Source: a virus (lineage: Duplodnaviria; Caudoviricetes). From it: a stretch of DNA of 58,786 nucleotides. How positions within the stretch are numbered: position 1 is the first letter of the stretch; every line of letters starts with the position of its first letter. Shown here piece after piece: positions 35,644 to 57,337 of this stretch. A program made the translations under genes and the position numbers. A model generated the notes under the pieces. That model saw nothing but the letters and a program-made list of their open reading frames with translations, did not search any database and was not told where the DNA came from. The stretch is taken from the IMG/VR virus record IMGVR_UViG_3300036846_001130, positions 1 through 58,786 of that record; one strand, given 5' to 3'.

Positions 35644-36701
35644 AAAAGGCTCTGATCCTCCTCTTCATCGCGGGGTGTGTGCTGCTGGCCGCGCAGGTGG
35701 GACGCGACCGCAACGACCGGATCGAGCGCACCACCAGCTATAGCCACACGGGCGGCAAATCAGCTTCGGGCTATACGAAATTCGGCGGCGCAGGAGGCGG
35801 AGGAGGGGGCGGCGGCGGAGTCTCGCCCGGCACCGCCAACCAGATCGCGTTCTATGCCACGACAGGCTCGACGGTATCAGGCGACACGCGCCTATTAGAT
35901 GACGGCAGCCAGCTGAAATACTCCGGCTCGCAGGTCTGCACTGCTGCCAACGGCGCATGCGGTGGTGGCGGAGGCGGCGGCTCGGTGGGCACGGGCATCC
36001 CGACGCCGACCGGGACCGCGCATTCTTTCATCTTCAACAACTCAACCGCCATCTCGGCATCGAGCGGGAACAACTCGCCGGGCGGGCTGTGGTCGCAGCT
36101 GGGCGGAGCCTTCGCGGTAGGCAGCAACGTGGCAGGAGCCGGGACCGGAGGGGCCGGACAACTGGCTTACTACGCTCTGGCCACTGGGGTCGGAGGCGGG
36201 AACGCTTCTCTCGCCGAGGATGCGGTCAGCCAGCAGGGCACGCTCAACCTGTTCGGCATGTATACCTTCACGGGCAGCCAGAACAGCACGGCCACCGATC
36301 AAATCGTTTTCTTGGGGATGAGCACGGCGCTCTATGGCACGCTCAACGCGGTTCATCCTGCCGGGCTGATCTTTGCTTTCCGCTATGCAGGCGCGGGCGC
36401 GGGCGGTACGGACACGCACTGGAATGCTTACGTCTCGACCGACGCGACGCACTTCACCGAAGTCGATACCGGGATCAGCATCGACACCGCGCAGCACCAG
36501 TGGGCCATCGCGAAGAATGGCACAGGCGGCCTCGACTACTACATCGACGGCACCAAGAAGGCGACTATCGCGTCCGGCTCGACCGGATTTCCCTCCGGAG
36601 CTGCGCTCAACACGCCCGTGTACTGCGTGAGCAATATCGCGACGCCTTCGGTGACGCACAGTTTGTTCATCAGTTCGATTCGCTGGTGGCCGCTCGAATG
36701 A
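35640..36701 (+). CDS. Fibre-like protein with signal peptide, poly-Gly linkers and lectin-like C-terminus
   Basis: MKKALILLFIAGCVLLAAQ; GTANQIAFY; LDYYIDG. Confidence 0.7.
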   Translation: MKKALILLFIAGCVLLAAQVGRDRNDRIERTTSYSHTGGKSASGYTKFGGAGGGGGGGGGVSPGTANQIAFYATTGSTVSGDTRLLDDGSQLKYSGSQVCTAANGACGGGGGGGSVGTGIPTPTGTAHSFIFNNSTAISASSGNNSPGGLWSQLGGAFAVGSNVAGAGTGGAGQLAYYALATGVGGGNASLAEDAVSQQGTLNLFGMYTFTGSQNSTATDQIVFLGMSTALYGTLNAVHPAGLIFAFRYAGAGAGGTDTHWNAYVSTDATHFTEVDTGISIDTAQHQWAIAKNGTGGLDYYIDGTKKATIASGSTGFPSGAALNTPVYCVSNIATPSVTHSLFISSIRWWPLE

Positions 36702-36720
36702 AATTTGTGAGGAGGATTCT

Positions 36721-36945
36721 ATGCCAGTTCAAACGGTAAACACCTACGCCTTCTGCGTGAAGCGCCTCTCGGGGATCAGCAGCTCCGGCGTGCAGAACGG
36801 GCAATACGAAGGCGAGCAAGTCTACGTCGTCGCCACTTCGCTGGCGAATGCGCAGGCCACGCTGGCCGCAAACTACGGCTCCGATCTCGGCCCGGTAACC
36901 GGAGGAGCCGCGAAGACTCCGGGGGCCATCACCCAGTTGGCGTGA
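36721..36945 (+). CDS. Small protein, paralog 1 of 3
   Basis: MPVQTVNTY...YGSDL; GGAGG RBS. Confidence 0.75.
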   Translation: MPVQTVNTYAFCVKRLSGISSSGVQNGQYEGEQVYVVATSLANAQATLAANYGSDLGPVTGGAAKTPGAITQLA

Positions 36946-36955
36946 GGAGGGACAA

Positions 36956-37225
36956 ATGGCAGTTCAAACGACGAACGTTTACCGCTGTACGGCTGTGCTC
37001 AAATCGGCGAGCCAGACGGGCGCTCACGCCGCCGAGATAGTGGTGTGCGCGCAGAATGCAGCTGGGGCGCAGGCCGTGGTGGCCGCCGTCTTCGGCAGTG
37101 ATCTCAACTTCATACGCGGCCCGGTGCTAGCCATGCAGGGCGTGTACACCACCATGACCGGAAGCTTGCTGGATGCGCCGCTTGACCATCAGCGCGGCGA
37201 GCATGTGGCGCACGCCAAAAACTGA
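36956..37225 (+). CDS. Small protein, paralog 2 of 3
   Basis: MAVQTTNVY...FGSDL..IRGPVL...TTMTGSL. Confidence 0.75.
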   Translation: MAVQTTNVYRCTAVLKSASQTGAHAAEIVVCAQNAAGAQAVVAAVFGSDLNFIRGPVLAMQGVYTTMTGSLLDAPLDHQRGEHVAHAKN

Positions 37226-37237
37226 AAAGGGGGAGCC

Positions 37238-37546
37238 ATGGCAGTCCAAATCATGAACGTCTACCGCTCTACCGTCGTCCTGAACTCTCTGATCGATGGG
37301 GGCTACGGCATGGCCGGAATCGAAGTCGCGGTGATCGCGGAAAGCCCGGACGCGGTGATGCCAATTCTGCAGGCCCAGTACGGCAGTGACATCGCGAGCG
37401 TCCGTGGTCCGGTGCTGGTCGTCGAGGGAGCTTTGACCACCATGACCGGGTCACTGCGGAAGGCACCAGCGGCACCAGCTCCGCCGCCTGCCGATGAAGA
37501 AGAGAGCGAGCATCATCCGGCCAAGCACGCCGCGAAAAAAAACTGA
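37238..37546 (+). CDS. Small protein, paralog 3 of 3
   Basis: MAVQIMNVY...YGSDI..VRGPVL...TTMTGSL. Confidence 0.75.
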   Translation: MAVQIMNVYRSTVVLNSLIDGGYGMAGIEVAVIAESPDAVMPILQAQYGSDIASVRGPVLVVEGALTTMTGSLRKAPAAPAPPPADEEESEHHPAKHAAKKN

Positions 37547-37599
37547 AGCCGCCGCCGCGTCCGGCCAAAAAGAAAGTTCCAACGAGGAGAAGGTGAGTC

Positions 37600-38034
37600 A
37601 TGGGTGCAGGCAATCCGGAAAATCTGACCAGCAAGGGCAAGCGCTGGGAAAAAGGCCAGTCGGGCAATCCTTCCGGCAGGCCCACGCGCATGTTCACGCT
37701 GGTCACCATGGCGCTGCGCGAGAAGCTGGCTGCGGTCGATCCCAAGACCAAGAAGACCTACGCGCAGCGCATTGCCGACCTGCTGCTCAACTGCGCCATC
37801 GATCCCGATCCCGAGCTGGACAAGACGCGCATCATGGCGCTGTCGGAGATCATCGACCGCTGCGAAGGCAAGCCCAAGCAGCAGCTCGATGTCAACGACG
37901 TTACCGCTGAGCTGCGCGCCCGCTCCGATGAAGACCTGATGTTCAAGCTGGAGCACGGCTACTGGCCGGAGGACGCCTCCATGGAGAAACGCAACCGCAG
38001 GATTCTGGAAGCAGGCAAAGAAATTACGCAGTGA
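37600..38034 (+). CDS. Terminase small subunit candidate (DUF5681-like)
   Basis: WEKGQSGNPSGRP; EIIDRCEGKPKQ; directly upstream of TerL ATPase. Confidence 0.75.
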   Translation: MGAGNPENLTSKGKRWEKGQSGNPSGRPTRMFTLVTMALREKLAAVDPKTKKTYAQRIADLLLNCAIDPDPELDKTRIMALSEIIDRCEGKPKQQLDVNDVTAELRARSDEDLMFKLEHGYWPEDASMEKRNRRILEAGKEITQ

Positions 38035-38720
38035 GTGATACCGCACTTTCGCTCGGCAACCGCGAGCGCGTCATCACCGACATCCTGATCAAGCAGGAAC
38101 TGGAACGCAGGCGGATATGGACACTGTGTGCCCAAAAAGTCGCGAGCTTCGAGGCCGGGCCGATGCTCTGGTTGACCAAGCACACGGCCACCGAGGATTT
38201 GCACTGGCTGCAAAAGGGCACGCCTCCGGTCGCGCCTTTTCCGGCGAAGCCCTATCTGCTGGTGGCGATGAGCTACCTGCTCACCAACGACACGATTTTC
38301 ATTCCCAAGTCGCGGGAGATGATGACGTCGTGGCTGGTGTGCGGCTACATCTCTTGGATGTGCCAGTGGCTGCCGCACATCTTCTGGATTCTGCAGACCG
38401 AGAAGGAAGACAAGGCCACGCAGCTGATCGACTACTGCCGCATTCTCTACAACCGCCAGCCCGACTGGATGAAGGAACGCAATCCGCTGGTGGTCTCGAA
38501 CTCGGTCGAGATCACGCGGGCCAACGGCTCGCACGTGCTCGCGGTTCCGCAGGGAGAGAACCAAGTTCGTTTGTTTCACCCTTACGGCTACATGCAGGAC
38601 GAAAGCGCCTTCCTGCCTGAAGCCGAGCAATCGTTCAACGCGGTGCGCCCGGTCTGCAAGCAAATCGTGGCGGTCTCTTCGGATGAAATCGGCTGGTTCC
38701 ACAACGAGTGCAAGCGCTGA
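38031..38720 (+). CDS. terL: Terminase large subunit, N-terminal ATPase part
   Basis: Walker A-like IPKSREMMTSW, Walker B YMQDESAF, coupling motif VAVSS, then GWF. Confidence 0.85.
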   Translation: MSDTALSLGNRERVITDILIKQELERRRIWTLCAQKVASFEAGPMLWLTKHTATEDLHWLQKGTPPVAPFPAKPYLLVAMSYLLTNDTIFIPKSREMMTSWLVCGYISWMCQWLPHIFWILQTEKEDKATQLIDYCRILYNRQPDWMKERNPLVVSNSVEITRANGSHVLAVPQGENQVRLFHPYGYMQDESAFLPEAEQSFNAVRPVCKQIVAVSSDEIGWFHNECKR

Positions 38721-39079
38721 TGCTGACTTCTGGGGGTTACACCATCAGGCCGGACGGTTCGCTGGTGATCTCGACCACGCTGCAAGCGGGAGCGAGTAAG
38801 ACCACCAGAGGTTTGATTTTCAATCCAGATGGTTCGCTGTTCACGGCCACCCTTACCATGCCGACCGGGAGCTATGTCAGTTCCGAGGGATGGCGCTATG
38901 ACCCGAACGGCGCACTGGTGACCAACGTGACCAAGAAAGCCGGAGCATTTCTAAATTCTGACGGCTTCACTCTTAATCCGAATGGTGCTGTCTTGATTTC
39001 GGGAACTAAGCAGGCGGGCGCAGTCACCACCAGCCGCCAGCTCACCTTCAACCCGGATGGTTCTCTGTTCGCATACTAG
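38720..39079 (+). CDS. Protein of five ~25-aa NPDGSL repeats
   Basis: RPDGSL, NPDGSL, DPNGAL, NPNGAV, NPDGSL; TGATG coupling. Confidence 0.7.
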   Translation: MLTSGGYTIRPDGSLVISTTLQAGASKTTRGLIFNPDGSLFTATLTMPTGSYVSSEGWRYDPNGALVTNVTKKAGAFLNSDGFTLNPNGAVLISGTKQAGAVTTSRQLTFNPDGSLFAY

Positions 39080-39089
39080 GAGGCAAACT

Positions 39090-39242
39090 GTGATCTCAAT
39101 CATCCTGCTCGTATTCGCGTTCGTCCTTGCATGTCTCGCGGCGAAGAATATCGGCGCGCCGAACTGGTCTCTGGGCTGGGCCGCCATCGCGTTCTATTTT
39201 TTGAGCCTTCTGCTCGGCAGCATAGGCACGCACTGGCACTGA
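39090..39242 (+). CDS. Small two-TM membrane protein (holin candidate)
   Basis: Two hydrophobic segments; AGGAGG RBS, GTG start. Confidence 0.6.
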   Translation: MISIILLVFAFVLACLAAKNIGAPNWSLGWAAIAFYFLSLLLGSIGTHWH

Positions 39243-39255
39243 AGGGAGTTAAGTC

Positions 39256-39486
39256 ATGGCAATCCTGTCAGAGGCCGCCAAGAGAGCGGTGCCGAAATCG
39301 GAGCGCGGCGTGCCCGGCAAATCCGGCACAGGCAGCTATCCCATGCCCAATGCCCGGCATGCTGCAGCCGCTGTGGGCTTCGCCGCGATGCATCACGGTG
39401 CAGCCTTCGCTTCCAAGATTCGCGCCAAAGCCCGCAGGCTGGGATTCGCGGGCGGCAAAAAGAAATCGGCGTTTTACGGAGAGTGA
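39256..39486 (+). CDS. Small basic protein (DUF6582-like) ending SAFYGE
   Basis: SYPMPNARHAAAA...KIRAKARRLG. Confidence 0.75.
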   Translation: MAILSEAAKRAVPKSERGVPGKSGTGSYPMPNARHAAAAVGFAAMHHGAAFASKIRAKARRLGFAGGKKKSAFYGE

Positions 39487-39489
39487 AAC

Positions 39490-40122
39490 ATGTTCGGCGA
39501 TCCCGATCAGCGCGACCACATGCTGGCAGGTATCAAGCGGGCCTATAACTCGCCGAAGACACCGGAACACTTGCGCCCGCATCTCGGGCGACGACTACAA
39601 GGAGGCACCATGGCATTCCCACCTCGCAAAACGATTGTTGGTCCGCTCGGACGCTCGCCGATTGTGACGCGCACCTCGCGTACCGCGACCACGCCGATCA
39701 AAACTTTGGTCGGCTCGACTGTGCGCCCTCCGGTGAAAACACAGGTGGGCAATCTGGCTGCGCCTCGACCGAAAACACTGGTCGGCAATCTGGCAGCTCC
39801 GCCTCCGAAGACCACACCCGCGAATCTGGGCAAGGGCGGGACCAAGCCGCTGGGCATGCCTGCGGCAGATCGCGGCGCGATCCAGACCACGAACCCGATC
39901 TCCAGCTCGCGTAGCTTCGGCATGAGCGACGGTAATCCCGGTCGCAGCGTGTCCCCGATGCCGAAGCCTGCCGGAGGTCCGGTCAATCCCACTTTCGACT
40001 TCAAGCGCGCTCTGAATGACACCTCGATTCAGGACGGCGGCATGGGACCGACTGCCAAGCGCATGGGGCGCGCTCCGAGTCGCGGGTCGCGCACCCGGCG
40101 CAGCGCATTCTTCGGCGAATGA
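39490..40122 (+). CDS. Basic Pro-rich repeat protein ending SAFFGE
   Basis: KT.VGNLAAP repeats; possible second start at 39610 (GGAGG RBS). Confidence 0.7.
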   Translation: MFGDPDQRDHMLAGIKRAYNSPKTPEHLRPHLGRRLQGGTMAFPPRKTIVGPLGRSPIVTRTSRTATTPIKTLVGSTVRPPVKTQVGNLAAPRPKTLVGNLAAPPPKTTPANLGKGGTKPLGMPAADRGAIQTTNPISSSRSFGMSDGNPGRSVSPMPKPAGGPVNPTFDFKRALNDTSIQDGGMGPTAKRMGRAPSRGSRTRRSAFFGE

Positions 40123-40125
40123 GCC

Positions 40126-40335
40126 ATGGCAAGAGTCTCGGCTGCGTCCGTCGACTACATGGAATTGCAGGGGGCACGCAAGGATGCCGACTGCGATCAC
40201 GTCGTGGTGAAGGGCGGAGTCAGTTCGCGGCTGGGTTGCTGCAATGACTTCCGCCCTGATCCCGGCACGCAGGCCTTCAAGTGTGGAACCTGTCAGCACC
40301 TCGTCCGCATCCACGATCCTCTGTACGCGCGGTGA
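40126..40335 (+). CDS. Small Cys-rich protein
   Basis: DCDHV..GGVS..LGCCNDF...CGTC. Confidence 0.65.
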   Translation: MARVSAASVDYMELQGARKDADCDHVVVKGGVSSRLGCCNDFRPDPGTQAFKCGTCQHLVRIHDPLYAR

Positions 40336-40338
40336 ACC

Positions 40339-40527
40339 ATGCCCACTGAACATTTCAAATCGCAAGAGGCCTATCGCAAGTGGACGGCCTACCGCCACAT
40401 TCACGGCATCCCGGCCCCGAATCTGAAGACTGCCATCGTGGCAGGGAAGCCGCACAAGGTGAAGCACAGCGAGCTGTCGCTGCCTGCGATGCGGGAAAAG
40501 AAGCGCGAAGCTTTTTATGGCGAATGA
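40339..40527 (+). CDS. Small basic protein ending EAFYGE
   Basis: FKSQEAYRKWTAYRHIHG; overlaps start of TerL-C. Confidence 0.7.
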   Translation: MPTEHFKSQEAYRKWTAYRHIHGIPAPNLKTAIVAGKPHKVKHSELSLPAMREKKREAFYGE

Positions 40528-41566
40528 CAACGTAGAGCATCCCCACATCGGGATGTCTTCGTGGAAAAACCATCACGGGATCACCATCCTGCGGCTGCAC
40601 TACAGTGCCGATCCGGACAAAGGCGAAGGCGAGACCACCTACGTCAAGGAAATCAACAAGCATCTCTCGCCGTGGGCGCTGACCGCTTACGGGCGCATGA
40701 CCGATCCCACGCTGTACCTGAAAGAGTACGAGATCGATGCCGAGGCCACGCTGGGCGCGAAGCTGTTCCAGTTCACCGAGGAGGTCACAGTCGAGCCAGT
40801 GCGCGAGATTCCGCCCGAGTGGACGCGGCGCATGTCGGTCGATCCGCATCCCGGCATCCCGCACGCCCACCTTTGGGCCGCTACCGATCCATGGGGAGAT
40901 CGCTGGTACTACCGCGAAGTGTGGCCTTCGAAGGTTTGCTACGAGTGGAGGAACGGCATTCTCTACGGCAAGCCCGGCCCCTGCCCGCAGGATGAGCGCG
41001 GGCCGAACATCCTTGAGTACGCACAGACCATCAAGTACCTCGAATCCGCCGAGAACCCGGAGAATCGGCAGGGCAAGGAAGCGTTCGAGGAGGAAATTTT
41101 CGCGCGCGTGATCGACTACGCGGCGCGCGCCTTCGGCAAGGGCACCAACGACGACCCTGAGCAGGAAAACTATCAGCAGCGCTACGAGAAGCACCTCAGT
41201 GATCTCGAAGTAAGCCGTCCCTACTTCGATGACGCCAAGAAAGATCGACAGGTCGGCGTCGAGGTAGTGAATGAGGGCCTGAAGATCATCGAGCGCATGG
41301 GCAACGATGGCGAGTATCACAAGACCAGCCGCATTCACATTCTCGGCGAGCGCTGCCCTGAGCTGATCCACCAGCTGAAAAGCAATCGCCGCCAGCTGCT
41401 TTCGCCGCTACAGATCGAGCGGCAGGACCCCACAGGCAAGCCCGTGAAGGTTCGCAACCACATGACCGACAACCTGCGTTACATCGAGATGGCCAATCCC
41501 ATCTACGTGGCGAAGGAAGTTTTTTACGACTCTTTCCAGCCTGTTGCTCGCGGATTTTCTTACTAG
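40517..41566 (+). CDS. terL: Terminase large subunit, C-terminal lid plus RNase-H-like nuclease part
   Basis: LRLHYSADPDK, KEYEID, MSVDPH, NHMTDNLRY; precedes portal. Confidence 0.85.
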   Translation: MANDNVEHPHIGMSSWKNHHGITILRLHYSADPDKGEGETTYVKEINKHLSPWALTAYGRMTDPTLYLKEYEIDAEATLGAKLFQFTEEVTVEPVREIPPEWTRRMSVDPHPGIPHAHLWAATDPWGDRWYYREVWPSKVCYEWRNGILYGKPGPCPQDERGPNILEYAQTIKYLESAENPENRQGKEAFEEEIFARVIDYAARAFGKGTNDDPEQENYQQRYEKHLSDLEVSRPYFDDAKKDRQVGVEVVNEGLKIIERMGNDGEYHKTSRIHILGERCPELIHQLKSNRRQLLSPLQIERQDPTGKPVKVRNHMTDNLRYIEMANPIYVAKEVFYDSFQPVARGFSY

Positions 41567-41568
41567 CC

Positions 41569-44289
41569 ATGGCAGCCCGCCAGAGACCCATTCTTGAGAA
41601 CGAGCACCGACTCGTCACCGACATCATTGAGCGGCGCAACGAGAGCCGCAAGTGGATGCGGAAGAACATGCACGACGAGATGACCGAGGTATGGCGCGCC
41701 ATCAAGTGCAAGACCGCGCCGATTTTCAAGAAGGACCGGGCAGGCGTCGACACACAGGCGGAAGACAAATCGCGCACCAACGTGGCGATGCCCGACCTGA
41801 ACATCATCTATCGCCGCAACGCGGCGCGCATGACCGCCGCGCCCTATCGCCTGCGCTACACCGGAGGCGATCCCCTGACCGCCGAGATGCTTTCCAGCCT
41901 CGCCATGCAGCAGTACGCGCGCTCCGATGAGCCGTTCCACGATGTGCGCTGCGTGCTGGCCTCGGAGGCCTTCGGCTGGGGCTACACCAAACTTTACTGG
42001 GACAAGCTGGTGCGCACGATGACCTTCCGCAAGGCCATCATGAAGGGCAATGACGTCGTCTACCGTGACCGGGGTTCGATCATGCGCTCGCAGGGCGCGA
42101 ACGACAACGAGATCGAGGAAGCCATCGGCGCGATGGGGCCGGAGATGGACGACACCGAGATCGCGCGCTTCATGGCGAAAAGCGGCACGGAGGTGCAGGT
42201 GCCGCAGGAGACCACCCAGTATGAAGGCCCGCTCGTAAAGTGGATTTTCAATGGCGACCTGTACATCGAGCCGAATGCGCCCACGCTGGAGCGGTCGAGC
42301 TACTGCATCGAGCAGTTCACCGAGAACGATTTCTGGCTGGAAAAAATGTCGCGGCTTACCTACGAGGACCCCGACAGTGGCGAGGAAGTCTCCGCCTTCG
42401 ATCCCGAAGCGCTGCAGGAACTGATCGACACCGGAGGCGATACCGAGACCAAAGATCAGGAGCCGGGTGACGATCTGCGCGACATGTTCAACGCCGCCAT
42501 CGGGCGGGAGCGCGAGCAGGAGTATTACCTGCCGAAGAATCTGCGCCCGCGCAAAAAGTTCAACATCATCGAGCAACACTCACAGGATCGCGACGATGGC
42601 AGGTTCTACATTTCGTGGTGCTCGGAGAAGTGGCGTGACCGACTGCTGGGCCGTATGCCCTACCAGTTCGATCTCTACGGCAAATATCAGTACACCGACA
42701 TGTGCCCGCTGCCCGACCTGATCCTCAGCTACGGCGATTCCACGCCCCGCCTGCTGCGTCACATTTACATGATGCACAACCTGACGGTCGCGCAGAATTT
42801 CGATTACGTGACCAACCTGCTGAAGCCTTTCCTGCTCCGCCGTATGGGCGTGAACATCGAGCCAGAAGTGGTGGTGCGCGGACTCTTCCGTGAGCTGCAG
42901 GTCGCCGACCTGAACGGCGTGAAGCTGCTGCAGGAACCGCCGCTGCCTGCGGGCGCATTCGAACGCGAGGCCCAGCTGATGCGCATGATGGCGCTGGCTG
43001 AGCCATCGCTCACCTCGACCGAGAGTGGCACGGGAGCCAACCCGCAGGCGGGCAAGACGGCGACCACCGCGCTGCTGGCTTCGAAGTCTGCCGACGCTCT
43101 TACGCAATTCAAGCTGGACGGGCGCAATCGCTACCTGCGCGAACTGGGCCTCAAGAAGCTGTGGATGAATCAGCAGGGCCGCGAGCAGAACCAGCGCTGG
43201 ACGGTGGAGGCGCGCTACTGGGGAGAAGGCCTGCGCAAACGGGTCGAGGCCATCGAAGGCCCGCCGCCCGACTGGGCAATGACCGAGCGCTATGGCGGCA
43301 AGGTCTCGGCGATCAAGCTCGATCCGATGGACATTCAGGAAGATTTCGAAGTCGAGCCGGAGGCAGGTTCCTATCTGGCCGTCGACGACGAGATGCGCCA
43401 GCAGGCGGCGCAGAATCTCACGCAGGTCGCGATGGGCAATCCCGACATCATCGACCGCCGCAAGGTGATCCGCTTTCAGATGTCGACCATTCGCGGCATC
43501 GGCAACCCTGACGATTATTTCCTGCCCGAGATGCAAGGGCCGCCACCGCCACCGCCGCCGAAGATCAACGTGAACATTCAGGTGCCGATGGACAAGATGC
43601 CGAGCGACGTGGTGAATCAGCTGCTGCCGGAAATCGGCCTGCAGCCTTCGCAGATGCTGGAACACAAAGACGCGATGAGCGCGGTGACGCAGGCAGGCGA
43701 GGCTTCCGAAGCTGCCGACTCGATGATGAGTCCCGGCGAGAGCGAGCAGCAGGAACATGAGATGGGGGCCGAGCATGCCATGCAGGTCTCCGATCAGGCG
43801 CACGAAGCTGGGCTGCAGAGCGATCAGCAGGACCACGACATGCTCATGAAGGTGCATCAGGCCGCGCACGAACGCACCCAGCAGGATCGCGAGCACCGCA
43901 ACGCTCTCGATCAGAATGCGCAGCAGCACGTGCACTCCGTGGTACAGGCCGAGCAGCAGCACAGGCACGCGCTCACGCAAGGAGTGCAGCAGCAGGCGGG
44001 ACAAGCCGCGCAGAAAGGCGCAGAGATCGCCTCGAAGGAGCGCCAGCAAGGTGCCGGGCTGAAGTCGCAGGAACGCATCGCCAGCCAGCGCAACAAGCCC
44101 AATGGAAAACCCAACGGCAAACCGAAGGCTGCGGGCGGTGGCGAGAAGCAAACGCAGCCGCCGATGGTGCTGCACCTGAAGATCGATCACGGCACTGAAG
44201 GCGCTCCCAAGCGCACCAAGAAAACCGTGAAGCTGATTCGCGGCGAGGACGGCGTGACCACAGGCGCGGAGATCAACGAGGAAGAGTGA
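41569..44289 (+). CDS. Portal protein (P22/podovirus-like) with long C-terminal coiled coil
   Basis: 906 aa after terminase; GWGYTKLYW, KTATTA; Gln/His-rich tail. Confidence 0.85.
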   Translation: MAARQRPILENEHRLVTDIIERRNESRKWMRKNMHDEMTEVWRAIKCKTAPIFKKDRAGVDTQAEDKSRTNVAMPDLNIIYRRNAARMTAAPYRLRYTGGDPLTAEMLSSLAMQQYARSDEPFHDVRCVLASEAFGWGYTKLYWDKLVRTMTFRKAIMKGNDVVYRDRGSIMRSQGANDNEIEEAIGAMGPEMDDTEIARFMAKSGTEVQVPQETTQYEGPLVKWIFNGDLYIEPNAPTLERSSYCIEQFTENDFWLEKMSRLTYEDPDSGEEVSAFDPEALQELIDTGGDTETKDQEPGDDLRDMFNAAIGREREQEYYLPKNLRPRKKFNIIEQHSQDRDDGRFYISWCSEKWRDRLLGRMPYQFDLYGKYQYTDMCPLPDLILSYGDSTPRLLRHIYMMHNLTVAQNFDYVTNLLKPFLLRRMGVNIEPEVVVRGLFRELQVADLNGVKLLQEPPLPAGAFEREAQLMRMMALAEPSLTSTESGTGANPQAGKTATTALLASKSADALTQFKLDGRNRYLRELGLKKLWMNQQGREQNQRWTVEARYWGEGLRKRVEAIEGPPPDWAMTERYGGKVSAIKLDPMDIQEDFEVEPEAGSYLAVDDEMRQQAAQNLTQVAMGNPDIIDRRKVIRFQMSTIRGIGNPDDYFLPEMQGPPPPPPPKINVNIQVPMDKMPSDVVNQLLPEIGLQPSQMLEHKDAMSAVTQAGEASEAADSMMSPGESEQQEHEMGAEHAMQVSDQAHEAGLQSDQQDHDMLMKVHQAAHERTQQDREHRNALDQNAQQHVHSVVQAEQQHRHALTQGVQQQAGQAAQKGAEIASKERQQGAGLKSQERIASQRNKPNGKPNGKPKAAGGGEKQTQPPMVLHLKIDHGTEGAPKRTKKTVKLIRGEDGVTTGAEINEEE

Positions 44290-44699
44290 TCGCCTCAGGC
44301 ATTGCAACCAGCTACAAGCGGGAAATTCTCGACGGCATCCACGATGCTGGTGACGAATACATGATCGCTCTCTTCAGCGCGGGCGCGGACATCGGGCCGG
44401 ACACCAAGAGTTACACCGGGCAGGATGGCGAAGTGCACGGCTCCGGCTACGTGAAGGGCGGGCAGCAACTTAAAGGGCGCGCCTCAGGGACATCGGGCAC
44501 GACAGCCTACGTGACATTTTCGAACCCGCGCTGGTCTGGCGCATCGTTCACCGCGCGCGGCGCGCTGATCTACAACGCGAGCAAGGAAGATCGCGCGGTC
44601 GCGGTGATGAATTTCGGGCAGGACTACACCTGCACCAGCGGCGAGTTCGCCGTCAGCCTTCCGGCAGCAGGCAAGGACGCAATCGTGGTGGTGGCATAA
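44286..44699 (+). CDS. Conserved virion structural protein
   Basis: TSYKREILDG.H...GSGYVKGG...FTARGALIYN. Confidence 0.75.
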   Translation: MIASGIATSYKREILDGIHDAGDEYMIALFSAGADIGPDTKSYTGQDGEVHGSGYVKGGQQLKGRASGTSGTTAYVTFSNPRWSGASFTARGALIYNASKEDRAVAVMNFGQDYTCTSGEFAVSLPAAGKDAIVVVA

Positions 44700-45917
44700 A
44701 TGGGCGTTTATACCCCAATTCGACACCTGTACAAGCCAGCGGACGGAGAGACAGGCTGGGGCGGTCTGGTCGATGCGAACTGGGATGATCTCGATACCGT
44801 TGCGGATAAATCCTACGTCGATACGCAGGACACTTCCACGCTGGCGAGCGCAAAAGCTTACACCGACGCAGAGATCGCGGCGCTGCCGCCTGCAGGGGTC
44901 ACCTCTGTCTTCACGCGCACGGGCGCTGTGGTGGCGGCGGCCATGGACTATGGGGCGGTCGACAACTTGGAGCTGGGCGACAACTCTGGCAGCTCAATCC
45001 TGTTCGACTCTGGCCTTAACGCCGTCGAAGTTCAGGCCGGAGGTGGTACCGGGCCAGTTACTGTTGCGGCTTCGCTGGTCGACCTGTCGACGTCGGTGAC
45101 CGAAGTCGATGTCCCGACGCCTGCGACAGCGGACAACTCAATCAAGGCCGCTTCCACTGCTTTCGTGAAAGCGCAGGGCTATCAGGCGACCGCACAGAAG
45201 GACGTCGCGAACGGCTACGCGGGCCTCGATGCGGGCGGAAAGCTGAAGACCGCTGAGGCTCCGACGTGGAACCAGAGCACGACTGGAAGCGCGGCCAGCC
45301 TGAGCGCGGCCTCTGCGCTGCCGAACGGGACGACGGGGACCACGCAGGCAGCGGGCGACAACAGCACGAAGCTGGCTACGACCGCCTACGCAGATGCGGA
45401 AGTTGCCACGTTCACCGGAACAAGCAACGCGGTGTTTTACGGGTTTACGGTGTACCGCCCTGCTACCCCAGATACGATTGCAACAGGCCCAGAGTGCGCT
45501 CCCAACGTCGTCTACTGCTTCCCTTTCATTCTGCCGTTCAAGTTCACCGTCAGGTCCATAGTCACGAAGATGGCCGCTGCGCTAGTAGGCACTTACGACG
45601 CAGGCCTGTTTGACGCATCCGGTAACAACGTGGTGAGTCTTGGGGGGCTGAGCACCAACACGACCGCGCCCACCACGACCACGGTTGCTGCCGCCACTTT
45701 GCCCCCCGGCCTCTACTACCTGTGCTTGTGTGCTTCGGTGGCCAACGTCAATTTTTTCGGCATCTCCAACGGAATCAGCGGCACGTTGAATTTCTCGACG
45801 TACTACACCGCCGCGAACCCCGCAATCAGCGGGGTTCTCCCCAGCACGCTAGGCGCGCTCACGGCGCAGAACAATACGAGCGTGTACCCACTTTTGGCGG
45901 TGTTCAGGAATAGCTGA
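44700..45917 (+). CDS. Tail fibre-like protein
   Basis: VTSVFTRTGAV, DNSTKLATTAY, NGYAGLDAGGK fibre motifs. Confidence 0.8.
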   Translation: MGVYTPIRHLYKPADGETGWGGLVDANWDDLDTVADKSYVDTQDTSTLASAKAYTDAEIAALPPAGVTSVFTRTGAVVAAAMDYGAVDNLELGDNSGSSILFDSGLNAVEVQAGGGTGPVTVAASLVDLSTSVTEVDVPTPATADNSIKAASTAFVKAQGYQATAQKDVANGYAGLDAGGKLKTAEAPTWNQSTTGSAASLSAASALPNGTTGTTQAAGDNSTKLATTAYADAEVATFTGTSNAVFYGFTVYRPATPDTIATGPECAPNVVYCFPFILPFKFTVRSIVTKMAAALVGTYDAGLFDASGNNVVSLGGLSTNTTAPTTTTVAAATLPPGLYYLCLCASVANVNFFGISNGISGTLNFSTYYTAANPAISGVLPSTLGALTAQNNTSVYPLLAVFRNS

Positions 45918-56520: not shown

Positions 56521-57099
56521 ATGGGCGGCGGCGGCGTAAGTGGCGCACAGAAGAATACAGCAGCGGGGAACCTCGCGAACATGGCGACCACTGCCACTGG
56601 CAACATGAATCAGCAGTATGGGCAGGGCCAGCAGGCAGGCCAAGCCGCCACCGGATTTTTCGCCAACCGCTTGGCGAATGGTCTGCCCGGCTACCGCAAC
56701 ATGACCGACTTCAGCTCCGGCGACATCGCGCAGGCCTACGCACCGATCCGCGCGGACCTTATGCGCCGGACGGGCGGATACACCAGTACACCCTCGGGTT
56801 ATCGCGATGCGCTGTTCACCAATCTCGGAGCGCAACAGGGGCGAGCGTTCGACTCGACACTGATGCAGGCGCGGATGGCCAACGAGATGGCCAAGCAGCA
56901 AGGCGCTGCCGGGATGCAGGGCGAGCAGCAGATCGCAGGCAATCAGGCGCTCGGGTATGGATCGCTCGGAGCAGGCACGAATCAGTCGCTGCTCTACGGT
57001 CCTTCGAAGCCGACCGCGTGGGGCACTGTTGGCGGCCTTCTGCAGCAGGGCATGCAGACAGCTGGGGACTTGGCGAAGGCCGGAGCGTTTAAGGGATAA
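56521..57099 (+). CDS. Internal virion/ejection protein candidate
   Basis: G/Q/A-rich, MGGGG start. Confidence 0.65.
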   Translation: MGGGGVSGAQKNTAAGNLANMATTATGNMNQQYGQGQQAGQAATGFFANRLANGLPGYRNMTDFSSGDIAQAYAPIRADLMRRTGGYTSTPSGYRDALFTNLGAQQGRAFDSTLMQARMANEMAKQQGAAGMQGEQQIAGNQALGYGSLGAGTNQSLLYGPSKPTAWGTVGGLLQQGMQTAGDLAKAGAFKG

Positions 57100-57109
57100 G
57101 GAGCACGCT

Positions 57110-57337
57110 ATGGGAGCAGGCCTTAGCAAGATGGGAAATAATTTCCTGAGTAATTTCCAGACCCCGCAAGGGACTACTCCGGGTTCAGTGCTGGGTGGTA
57201 TCGGCGACATGGCGGACATCGCAGGGATAGGTGGGCAGAAACTGGGGCAGCAGCAGCAGCCCGCGCAGCCCGTCAATTTCAATCCGCCTCCGCAGGCCTT
57301 CATCGCGCCGCCTAAAAATCCGTTTTACGGAGGTTGA
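57110..57337 (+). CDS. Small G/Q-rich internal protein candidate ending KNPFYGG
   Basis: AAGGAG RBS. Confidence 0.6.
   Translation: MGAGLSKMGNNFLSNFQTPQGTTPGSVLGGIGDMADIAGIGGQKLGQQQQPAQPVNFNPPPQAFIAPPKNPFYGG

Follow-up and report, generated by a model that had tools for sequence, protein, structure and literature searches.

In textbooks the large terminase subunit (TerL) of tailed phages and herpesviruses is a motor made of one chain, and its gene is the marker by which phages are usually found and classified. Some TerLs, such as AceL-TerL and GOS-TerL, are encoded by separate genes that carry the halves of an intein, and their products are ligated into one chain, and in herpesviruses the genes UL16 and UL17 sit inside the intron of UL15. 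The herpesvirus terminase protein pUL15 comes from a spliced gene, according to one report (PMC3079670). Passages of a report on the Jug phages of the gut describe terL in two or three pieces interrupted by group I introns, with spliced RNA present in the reads, and small ribozymes of about 206 nucleotides (nt) on average (PMC12880540). For nrdA of Aeromonas phage Aeh1, part of another report describes two working chains that are made without splicing, the gene being split by the free-standing endonuclease gene mobE (PMC3653736). Here we analysed a terL locus in the IMG/VR record IMGVR_UViG_3300036846_001130, a metagenome assembly of an uncultured soil phage (Caudoviricetes); the window is this whole record of 58,786 nt. 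The predicted TerL of the window is encoded on the + strand by two open reading frames (ORFs) that are 1.8 kilobases (kb) apart. TerL-N (38031-38720, 229 residues) carries the N-terminal helices and the ATPase core strands with Walker A, Walker B and the C-motif, and TerL-C (40517-41566, 349 residues) carries the strand that would complete the ATPase sheet, the lid region and an RNase H-like nuclease.

The motifs that the initial annotation had read in the two ORFs were all recovered: KSREMMTSW (residues 93-101), YMQDESAF (187-194) and VAVSS (212-216) in TerL-N, and LRLHYSADPDK (25-35), EYEID (70-74), SVDPH (107-111) and HMTDNLRY (315-322) in TerL-C. The motifs are unlikely to be chance matches. 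K93, R95 and S100 of Walker A, D190 and E191 of Walker B and S216 of the C-motif were invariant across 33 homologues of TerL-N, and the nuclease acidic residues D109, D200 and D318 were invariant across 36 homologues of TerL-C. The P-loop of TerL-N (38307-38333, residues 93-101) is of a variant type, because Thr99 occupies the position of the canonical GK[ST] lysine in the alignment with T4 gp17 and the invariant Lys93 sits six residues upstream of that position.

At the level of sequence families the matches were weak, with the PHROG terminase large subunit found at E 7e-05 for TerL-N and E 0.0023 for TerL-C, and no Pfam terminase model matched either half. A profile of the N half built from the 33 homologues matched residues 141-274 of T4 gp17 across Walker A and Walker B (E 0.002), and the C-half profile gave only a chance match among PDB sequences (E 0.29). 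The AlphaFold2 model of TerL-N (predicted local distance difference test, pLDDT, 90.7) matched the ATPase of T4 gp17 (3cpe; E 2e-11, TMq 0.74, root-mean-square deviation 2.6 Å). The model of TerL-C (pLDDT 84) matched the P22 TerL nuclease (4dkw, E 4e-6), full-length D6E TerL (5oee), the SPP1 nuclease (2wc9) and the nuclease domain of RB49 TerL. A TerL combines an additional-strand, catalytic-glutamate (ASCE) ATPase, which bears Walker A, Walker B and the C-motif, with a C-terminal RNase H-like nuclease that has conserved acidic residues; both were present here, on two polypeptides instead of one, as in all 44 loci in which we found both halves. On sequence and model grounds the two ORFs are read as two parts of one large terminase, with packaging and cutting as the predicted function.

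The break was placed inside the ATPase core and not at the linker between ATPase and nuclease, because of the strand positions in the models and the alignments to the one-chain relatives P0273 and P0270. The TerL-N model ends with the C-motif strand (211-217) and one further helix, the chain stopping about 13 residues past the C-motif, and the TerL-C model starts with the strands 13-17 and 23-27. The next strand of the sheet is on the C chain, which agrees with the initial annotation of a split late in the ATPase domain. Residues 22-225 of TerL-N aligned with 29-231 of P0273 (571 residues), to which TerL-C aligned with residues 21-85 on 256-306 and 280-328 on 474-522; residues 12-35 of TerL-C aligned with 218-241 of P0270. 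At the junction the split form has at most about 4 residues past the last aligned position of TerL-N and about 20 before the first of TerL-C, and fused P0273 has 24 residues there. In fused P0313 the N and C profiles lie 28 residues apart, and the split form leaves about 4 profile positions after the N half and 5 before the C half. In these alignments the halves are colinear with the one-chain relatives P0273 and P0270 and abut, with nothing missing and nothing extra. By extrapolating the profile alignment the break would fall at about residue 300 of T4 gp17.

Prediction of a complex of TerL-N with TerL-C gave scores of 0.89, 0.88 and 0.89 in three runs, as compared to 0.11 for the best of three controls. 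Of the solved complexes 58 of 80 came up to this mark, and of the mismatched pairs 2 of 110, counts that are only a rough guide since custom alignments were used. The runs shared at least 91% of contacts, and partner pLDDT was at least 81. Residues 88-97 of TerL-N (strand 88-93) contacted residues 20-29 of TerL-C (strand 23-27), most tightly between 88-94 and 22-29, and a C-chain strand (about 22-27) was thereby modelled beside the Walker A strand of TerL-N. The tail of TerL-N (217-229) also contacted the C chain. The prediction supports binding of the two halves to each other, in line with the two-chain packaging motor of the initial annotation.

The two-gene layout was found widely among related viruses. 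A word-based protein search gave 135 stand-alone N-half clusters of about 230 residues and 246 C-half clusters, and among the 120 C-half matches listed none was longer than 365 residues, with lengths up to 611 allowed. A word-based search for longer proteins had pointed to no fused form, which was misleading, as fused relatives were found by exhaustive search. In IMG/VR the C-half profile matched 79 distinct loci, to which three loci of an earlier search and the window were added. In the 44 non-redundant loci with both halves (43 from IMG/VR and the window) the halves were in every case separate ORFs on the same strand, 1,207-5,594 nt apart. Only the C half was seen in 11 loci, mostly at contig ends, and in L064, which starts inside the N half, the halves are just 39 nt apart. 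A further 19 distant loci (L065-L083) matched parts of the C profile only, 18 of these matches lying in ORFs of 455-529 residues. The ratio of nonsynonymous to synonymous substitution rates (dN/dS) of both halves was 0.09-0.17 against six relatives.

GTDB gave four matches, all of them in metagenome-assembled genomes (MAGs) of Acidobacteriota or Terriglobales, and the hosts are therefore most likely Acidobacteriota. The same split layout was present in L129, a prophage on a 934-kb Acidobacteriota contig, and in L131. Among GenBank phages (INPHARED) there was no close relative: the C half and the fused relative P0318 had no matches, and the N half had one weak match, in a 540-residue ORF of an unannotated 484-kb phage.

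It is improbable in our view that the halves are not one enzyme at all, with an ATPase and a nuclease that each stand alone and work apart or meet only on the portal, or that one of them is a decaying remnant. The cut inside the ATPase sheet would leave such a stand-alone TerL-N without the strand beside its Walker A strand. Both halves are under similar purifying selection, and they co-occur in the same order in all loci long enough to show both. In favour of separate enzymes are the existence of packaging ATPases that act without a nuclease domain, such as phi29 gp16, and the reliance of two-chain binding on prediction.

The interval between the halves could be an intron, of group I, group II or an undescribed kind, with splicing restoring a one-chain terL mRNA, and we regard this as very unlikely. 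The Rfam intron search gave no matches at E ≤ 1 over 37500-42000, and at the gathering score no intron was found in ten related loci, where the sole match was a tRNA outside the gap; the ribozyme core expected of an intron-interrupted gene was not found at the interruption. The gap is made of ORFs end to end, and five of the six (g1, g3, g4, g5 and g6) have homologues in relatives and a dN/dS of 0.05-0.30 against close relatives, which is purifying selection. TerL-N closes with a conserved tail and a stop, TerL-C has a start of its own, gap length (1.2-5.6 kb) and gap content both vary between loci, and sister forms consist of adjacent genes with ATGA overlaps and no spacer. The Jug phages set a precedent for an intron, since group I introns interrupt their terL genes and RNA reads show the splicing, and passages of the same report indicate that its authors used intron models newer than those of Rfam (PMC12880540). 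The intron was rejected on the Rfam results, which cover described intron families only.

No intact terL was found elsewhere in the window record. The family profiles gave one N-half match and one C-half match, the Pfam models PF03237, PF17289, PF03354, PF04466 and PF05876 found no second terL, and none of ten other large window ORFs was a terminase by comparison with PHROGs.

That the split is an assembly artefact or a dead prophage fragment is extremely unlikely. The window is a metagenome assembly, and the only sequencing run to carry it in full may be that of the sample it came from, but the layout is repeated in dozens of independent IMG/VR assemblies and in GTDB MAGs, and the frames of both halves are intact and their dN/dS is low. 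TerL inteins that are split in nature are known, and a split intein that ligates the two chains after translation has next to no probability here, as the junction has no room for it (the split form has no more residues than fused P0273 and P0313), no N or C intein fragment lies at the break, and no Pfam intein or Hint family matched at E ≤ 0.1.

The locus is a real, conserved feature, and we consider it probable that it is a non-covalent two-chain TerL with a gene slot at the fission point. This computational analysis shows the anatomy of the genes, their conservation, the folds and the lack of splicing signals, from which physical association, activity and co-expression are predicted. The two-chain packaging motor of the initial annotation is supported by the lack of an intron, of room for an intein and of a second terL, and by the complex prediction, its binding and activity being predicted. 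Several points weigh against this reading. Three loci (L019, L033 and L060) hold 3.6-4.5 kb upstream of the C half without an N half. Rfam covers only described intron families, and no RNA runs were listed among the sequencing runs carrying the window. The five Pfam terminase models miss the two halves themselves, and the searches for a second terL with these models are therefore weak. The window record is 100% complete per CheckV, which is an estimate only, as IMG/VR types the record as linear. The complex score, by which the locus would belong to genes in pieces whose products assemble without ligation, may reflect memory of solved one-chain terminases and shows a TerL-like fit rather than binding.

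The wider family contains fused, adjacent and gapped forms. Exhaustive search with the N-half profile gave 2,833 proteins at E ≤ 0.001. Among the best 150 of these, 26 were at least 380 residues long, and all 26 also matched the C profile. After removal of 64 fragments, a protein tree was made of the window and the 86 listed proteins whose N domain is close to complete. It held 58 split and 24 fused forms, with 5 unclear; its well-supported branches require at least 6-7 state changes, and no fused member stands in the part (26 rows) that contains the window. A second IMG/VR scan, with a mixed clade, gave 42 loci. Four were fused (L086, L089, L105 and L106), about 20 had adjacent or overlapping genes with the same cut, several with ATGA or TGATG overlaps, 14 had gaps of 0.25-3.8 kb without the C-terminal tag described below, and three had no detectable C half. 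A tree of DNA loci with 78 non-identical N domains held 53 gapped, 16 adjacent and 3 fused forms and 6 without a C match. In this tree the clade of 41 that includes the window was gapped throughout (Shimodaira-Hasegawa-like approximate likelihood ratio test, SH-aLRT, 95), and the three fused forms were scattered among split ones. Both trees were made by a quick method and have no root, so they do not give the order of events. Repeated fission appears to be tolerated at the site where the C-motif strand gives way to the strand after it. In L087 (4182-5891) and L088 (428-2137) the halves were in one frame with a single in-frame TAA between them and no clear restart nearby, for which a plain split, readthrough and a nonsense mutation of recent date are all possible explanations.

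The gap of the window was filled, as annotated, by six tightly packed ORFs, all on the + strand, with neighbouring stops and starts from TerL-N to TerL-C overlapping or separated by 3-13 nt. None of the six was a homing endonuclease, maturase or transposase (Pfam and PHROGs, E ≤ 0.1). A Pfam scan of gap proteins from relatives, covering only ten of many, found no endonuclease family either; the endonuclease gene of the free-standing homing endonuclease type was thus absent among the six window ORFs and these ten proteins. The initial annotation had called the gap a permanent cluster of six unrelated genes. The first part stands, as a gene block lies between the halves in all 41 tree members of the clade, and the second does not, as three of the genes share a C-terminal tag and five have homologues in the gaps of relatives. 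Gap families were obtained by clustering the + strand gap ORFs of the 44 loci, and by this comparison the gap holds a conserved module, of the g4 family and tagged small proteins, beside changeable genes.

The first gap gene, g1 (38708-39079), encodes 123 residues from a GTG or 119 from the ATG at 38720 and has a repeated NPDGS motif; its homologues (cluster 9) occupy the gap in 7 loci, with a dN/dS of 0.21-0.27. The second, g2 (39057-39242), encodes a small hydrophobic protein of 61 residues with weak sub-threshold Pfam matches to membrane families only; its sole homologue is outside the gap, in L004 (5825-5941), and it is the least supported of the six genes. The basic protein of g3 (39256-39486, 76 residues, end KKKSAFYGE) belongs to cluster 3, found in 11 loci, and matches phrog_16160 at E 4e-4, with a dN/dS of 0.05-0.06 against L006 and L007. 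Its look-alikes in the Atlas are small viral proteins, and DUF6582 occurs on 11% of members of one such cluster. Gene g4 (39490-40122, 210 residues, end RRSAFFGE) is Pro/Gly/Lys-rich and represents the core gap family (cluster 0), present in 37 of the 44 loci with the tag on 34 of 38 members. It has a dN/dS of 0.18-0.30 against close relatives, is predicted to be disordered (Atlas model pLDDT 0.45), and had no usable match in an Atlas search. The Cys-rich g5 (40126-40335, 69 residues) has no tag and shows 70% identity with L002 and a dN/dS of 0.23. The last, g6 (40339-40527, 62 residues, end KKREAFYGE), shows 87% identity with L002 and a dN/dS of 0.05-0.06.

Other genes occupy the gap in relatives. 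A protein-L-isoaspartate O-methyltransferase-like (PCMT-type) gene (cluster 1, PF01135, E 2e-26; for example L047:6137-6658) directly follows TerL-N in 30 of 44 loci, but neither the window nor its closest relatives have it. A histidine phosphatase (PF00300) is in the gap of 12 loci. Several small families were also found, and single loci carry an epimerase, glycosyltransferase-like proteins and large secreted-looking proteins.

The tag consists of a Lys/Arg-rich stretch, a small residue and F[YF]G[E/D/G] at the C terminus or at most 3 residues from the end. It was counted in stop-to-stop ORFs of at least 40 residues, as a basic stretch followed by F[YF]G and at most 3 residues. It was strongly enriched in the gap: on the + strand 96 of 934 ORFs ending there carried it, in comparison to 8 of 3,549 outside; on the minus strand the counts were 0 of 1,017 for ORFs in the gap and 2 of 4,169 for those outside, all counts being inflated by near-identical loci such as L025/26/28/29 and L007/8. 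At least one tagged ORF was present in 39 of the 44 loci. Besides the window, the tag was noted across L002-L063 and in L129 and L131, and it was absent from 15 gaps examined in sister clades. The signal resides in the protein, because the tag codons vary synonymously, and a DNA signal such as a repeat or a Shine-Dalgarno sequence was ruled out on the same ground. In the window the tag is on g3, g4 and g6 in the gap and on one ORF outside it (56957-57337, + strand, end PPKNPFYGG), which lies between a 192-residue ORF and a long ORF running off the record. The tail of TerL-N holds a loosely tag-like G-x-F-x-[DN] stretch, which the complex model places against TerL-C.

On the + strand the gene order was a 144-residue DUF5681 ORF, the 229-residue ORF, the six small ORFs, the 349-residue ORF and a 906-residue ORF. 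The DUF5681 gene (37600-38034; Pfam PF18932, E 1.5e-08, above the cut-off) is in the position of a small terminase gene and is kept upstream of TerL-N in L002 and L003; by this position its product would be the small terminase. The 906-residue protein (41569-44289) is directly 3' of TerL-C, where portal genes commonly sit, and from its position it may be the portal. It matched no Pfam and no PHROGs family, is kept downstream of TerL-C in L002, L003 and L004 at 46-73% identity, and has a long C-terminal region rich in Gln, His and Glu.

The stop of the DUF5681 gene overlaps the GTG start of TerL-N, the TerL-N stop shares TGATG with the ATG of g1 at 38720, and the ATG of TerL-C is inside the last codons of g6, within those of its tag. 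This one-strand layout with overlapping or nearly touching stops and starts suggests co-transcription and translational coupling. A scan of 36500-45000 gave no promoter-like sites and terminator-like sites at chance level, and was uninformative.

Upstream of the DUF5681 gene are three tandem small + strand ORFs (36721-36945, 36956-37225 and 37238-37546) with similar starts (MxVQ..N.Y...). The first of them ends in a tail (KTPGAITQLA) that is also present in a 90-residue ORF inside the terminase gap of L005, L007 and L008 (cluster 21). Genes seem to move between the terminase gap and the upstream region.

In the mechanism that we propose, TerL-N would supply the N-terminal helices and the part of the ASCE core with Walker A, Walker B and the C-motif, and TerL-C would supply the lid, the RNase H-like nuclease and the beta-strand that comes next, which closes the sheet by pairing with the Walker A strand. 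The two polypeptides would join non-covalently into one large terminase. Co-transcription and translational coupling would make both chains together, and the junction between the two genes has become a stable slot for accessory genes. We also considered, as a speculation that we hold to be rather unlikely, that the cut in the ATPase core is a working design, the slot a privileged expression site and the tag a means of aiming the products at the packaging machine. Under this design TerL-C or the portal would be the docking partner of the tag, which might use the place where the G-x-F tail of TerL-N sits. The basic proteins that carry the tag, which are disordered, would either go in with the DNA or set the moment at which the chains join. 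The split motor and its cargo genes would then be one co-evolving unit, and the repeated changes of the sister clades between fused, adjacent and gapped forms would mark a general fission point of terminase ATPases.

If the ATPase sheet is built from two chains, the locus offers a ready-made complementation system for the communication between ATPase core, lid and nuclease. Pipelines for annotation and phylogeny that look for a single terL gene will overlook this large group of soil phages or score it wrongly, and no Pfam terminase model sees either half. The slot and its genes (for tagged proteins, a methyltransferase, a phosphatase and sugar modification) give a new place in which to seek accessory functions of the phages of Acidobacteriota, hosts for which, to our knowledge, few phages have been studied. 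A two-chain TerL would surprise specialists, and in the literature, with supplementary files outside the search, we found no description of an unspliced two-gene terL. One paper considered as a report of a split terL (PMC5679792) was rejected, since it concerns lysis genes.

The locus shares with the canonical one-chain TerLs (T4 gp17, P22, D6E, SPP1, HK97 and P74-26) the folds, the catalytic motifs and the order of ATPase, lid and nuclease, and also the neighbourhood, 3' of a small-terminase-like gene and 5' of a gene for a large protein. It differs from them in that two genes 1.8 kb apart encode it and in that the ATPase sheet would need the second chain. Split-intein TerLs are likewise encoded by separate genes, whereas the halves in the window have no spare residues for an intein. 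As in the Jug phages, so far as the passages on them go, the terL pieces are on one strand and would be transcribed together, which is predicted here from the gene layout; in those phages ribozymes splice the pieces, whereas here there was no ribozyme match and the gap is protein-coding throughout. In Aeh1 nrdA, as described in the part of the report cited above, a homing endonuclease gene explains the split, whereas none was found in the gap of the window, which holds a conserved multi-gene module, with the split fixed across the whole clade. Herpesvirus pUL15 is also a TerL homologue, with other genes interrupting its coding sequence. There the eukaryotic spliceosome brings back a single mRNA and a single chain, and the break is at another place in the protein, in contrast to the two genes and the predicted two chains of the phage described here.

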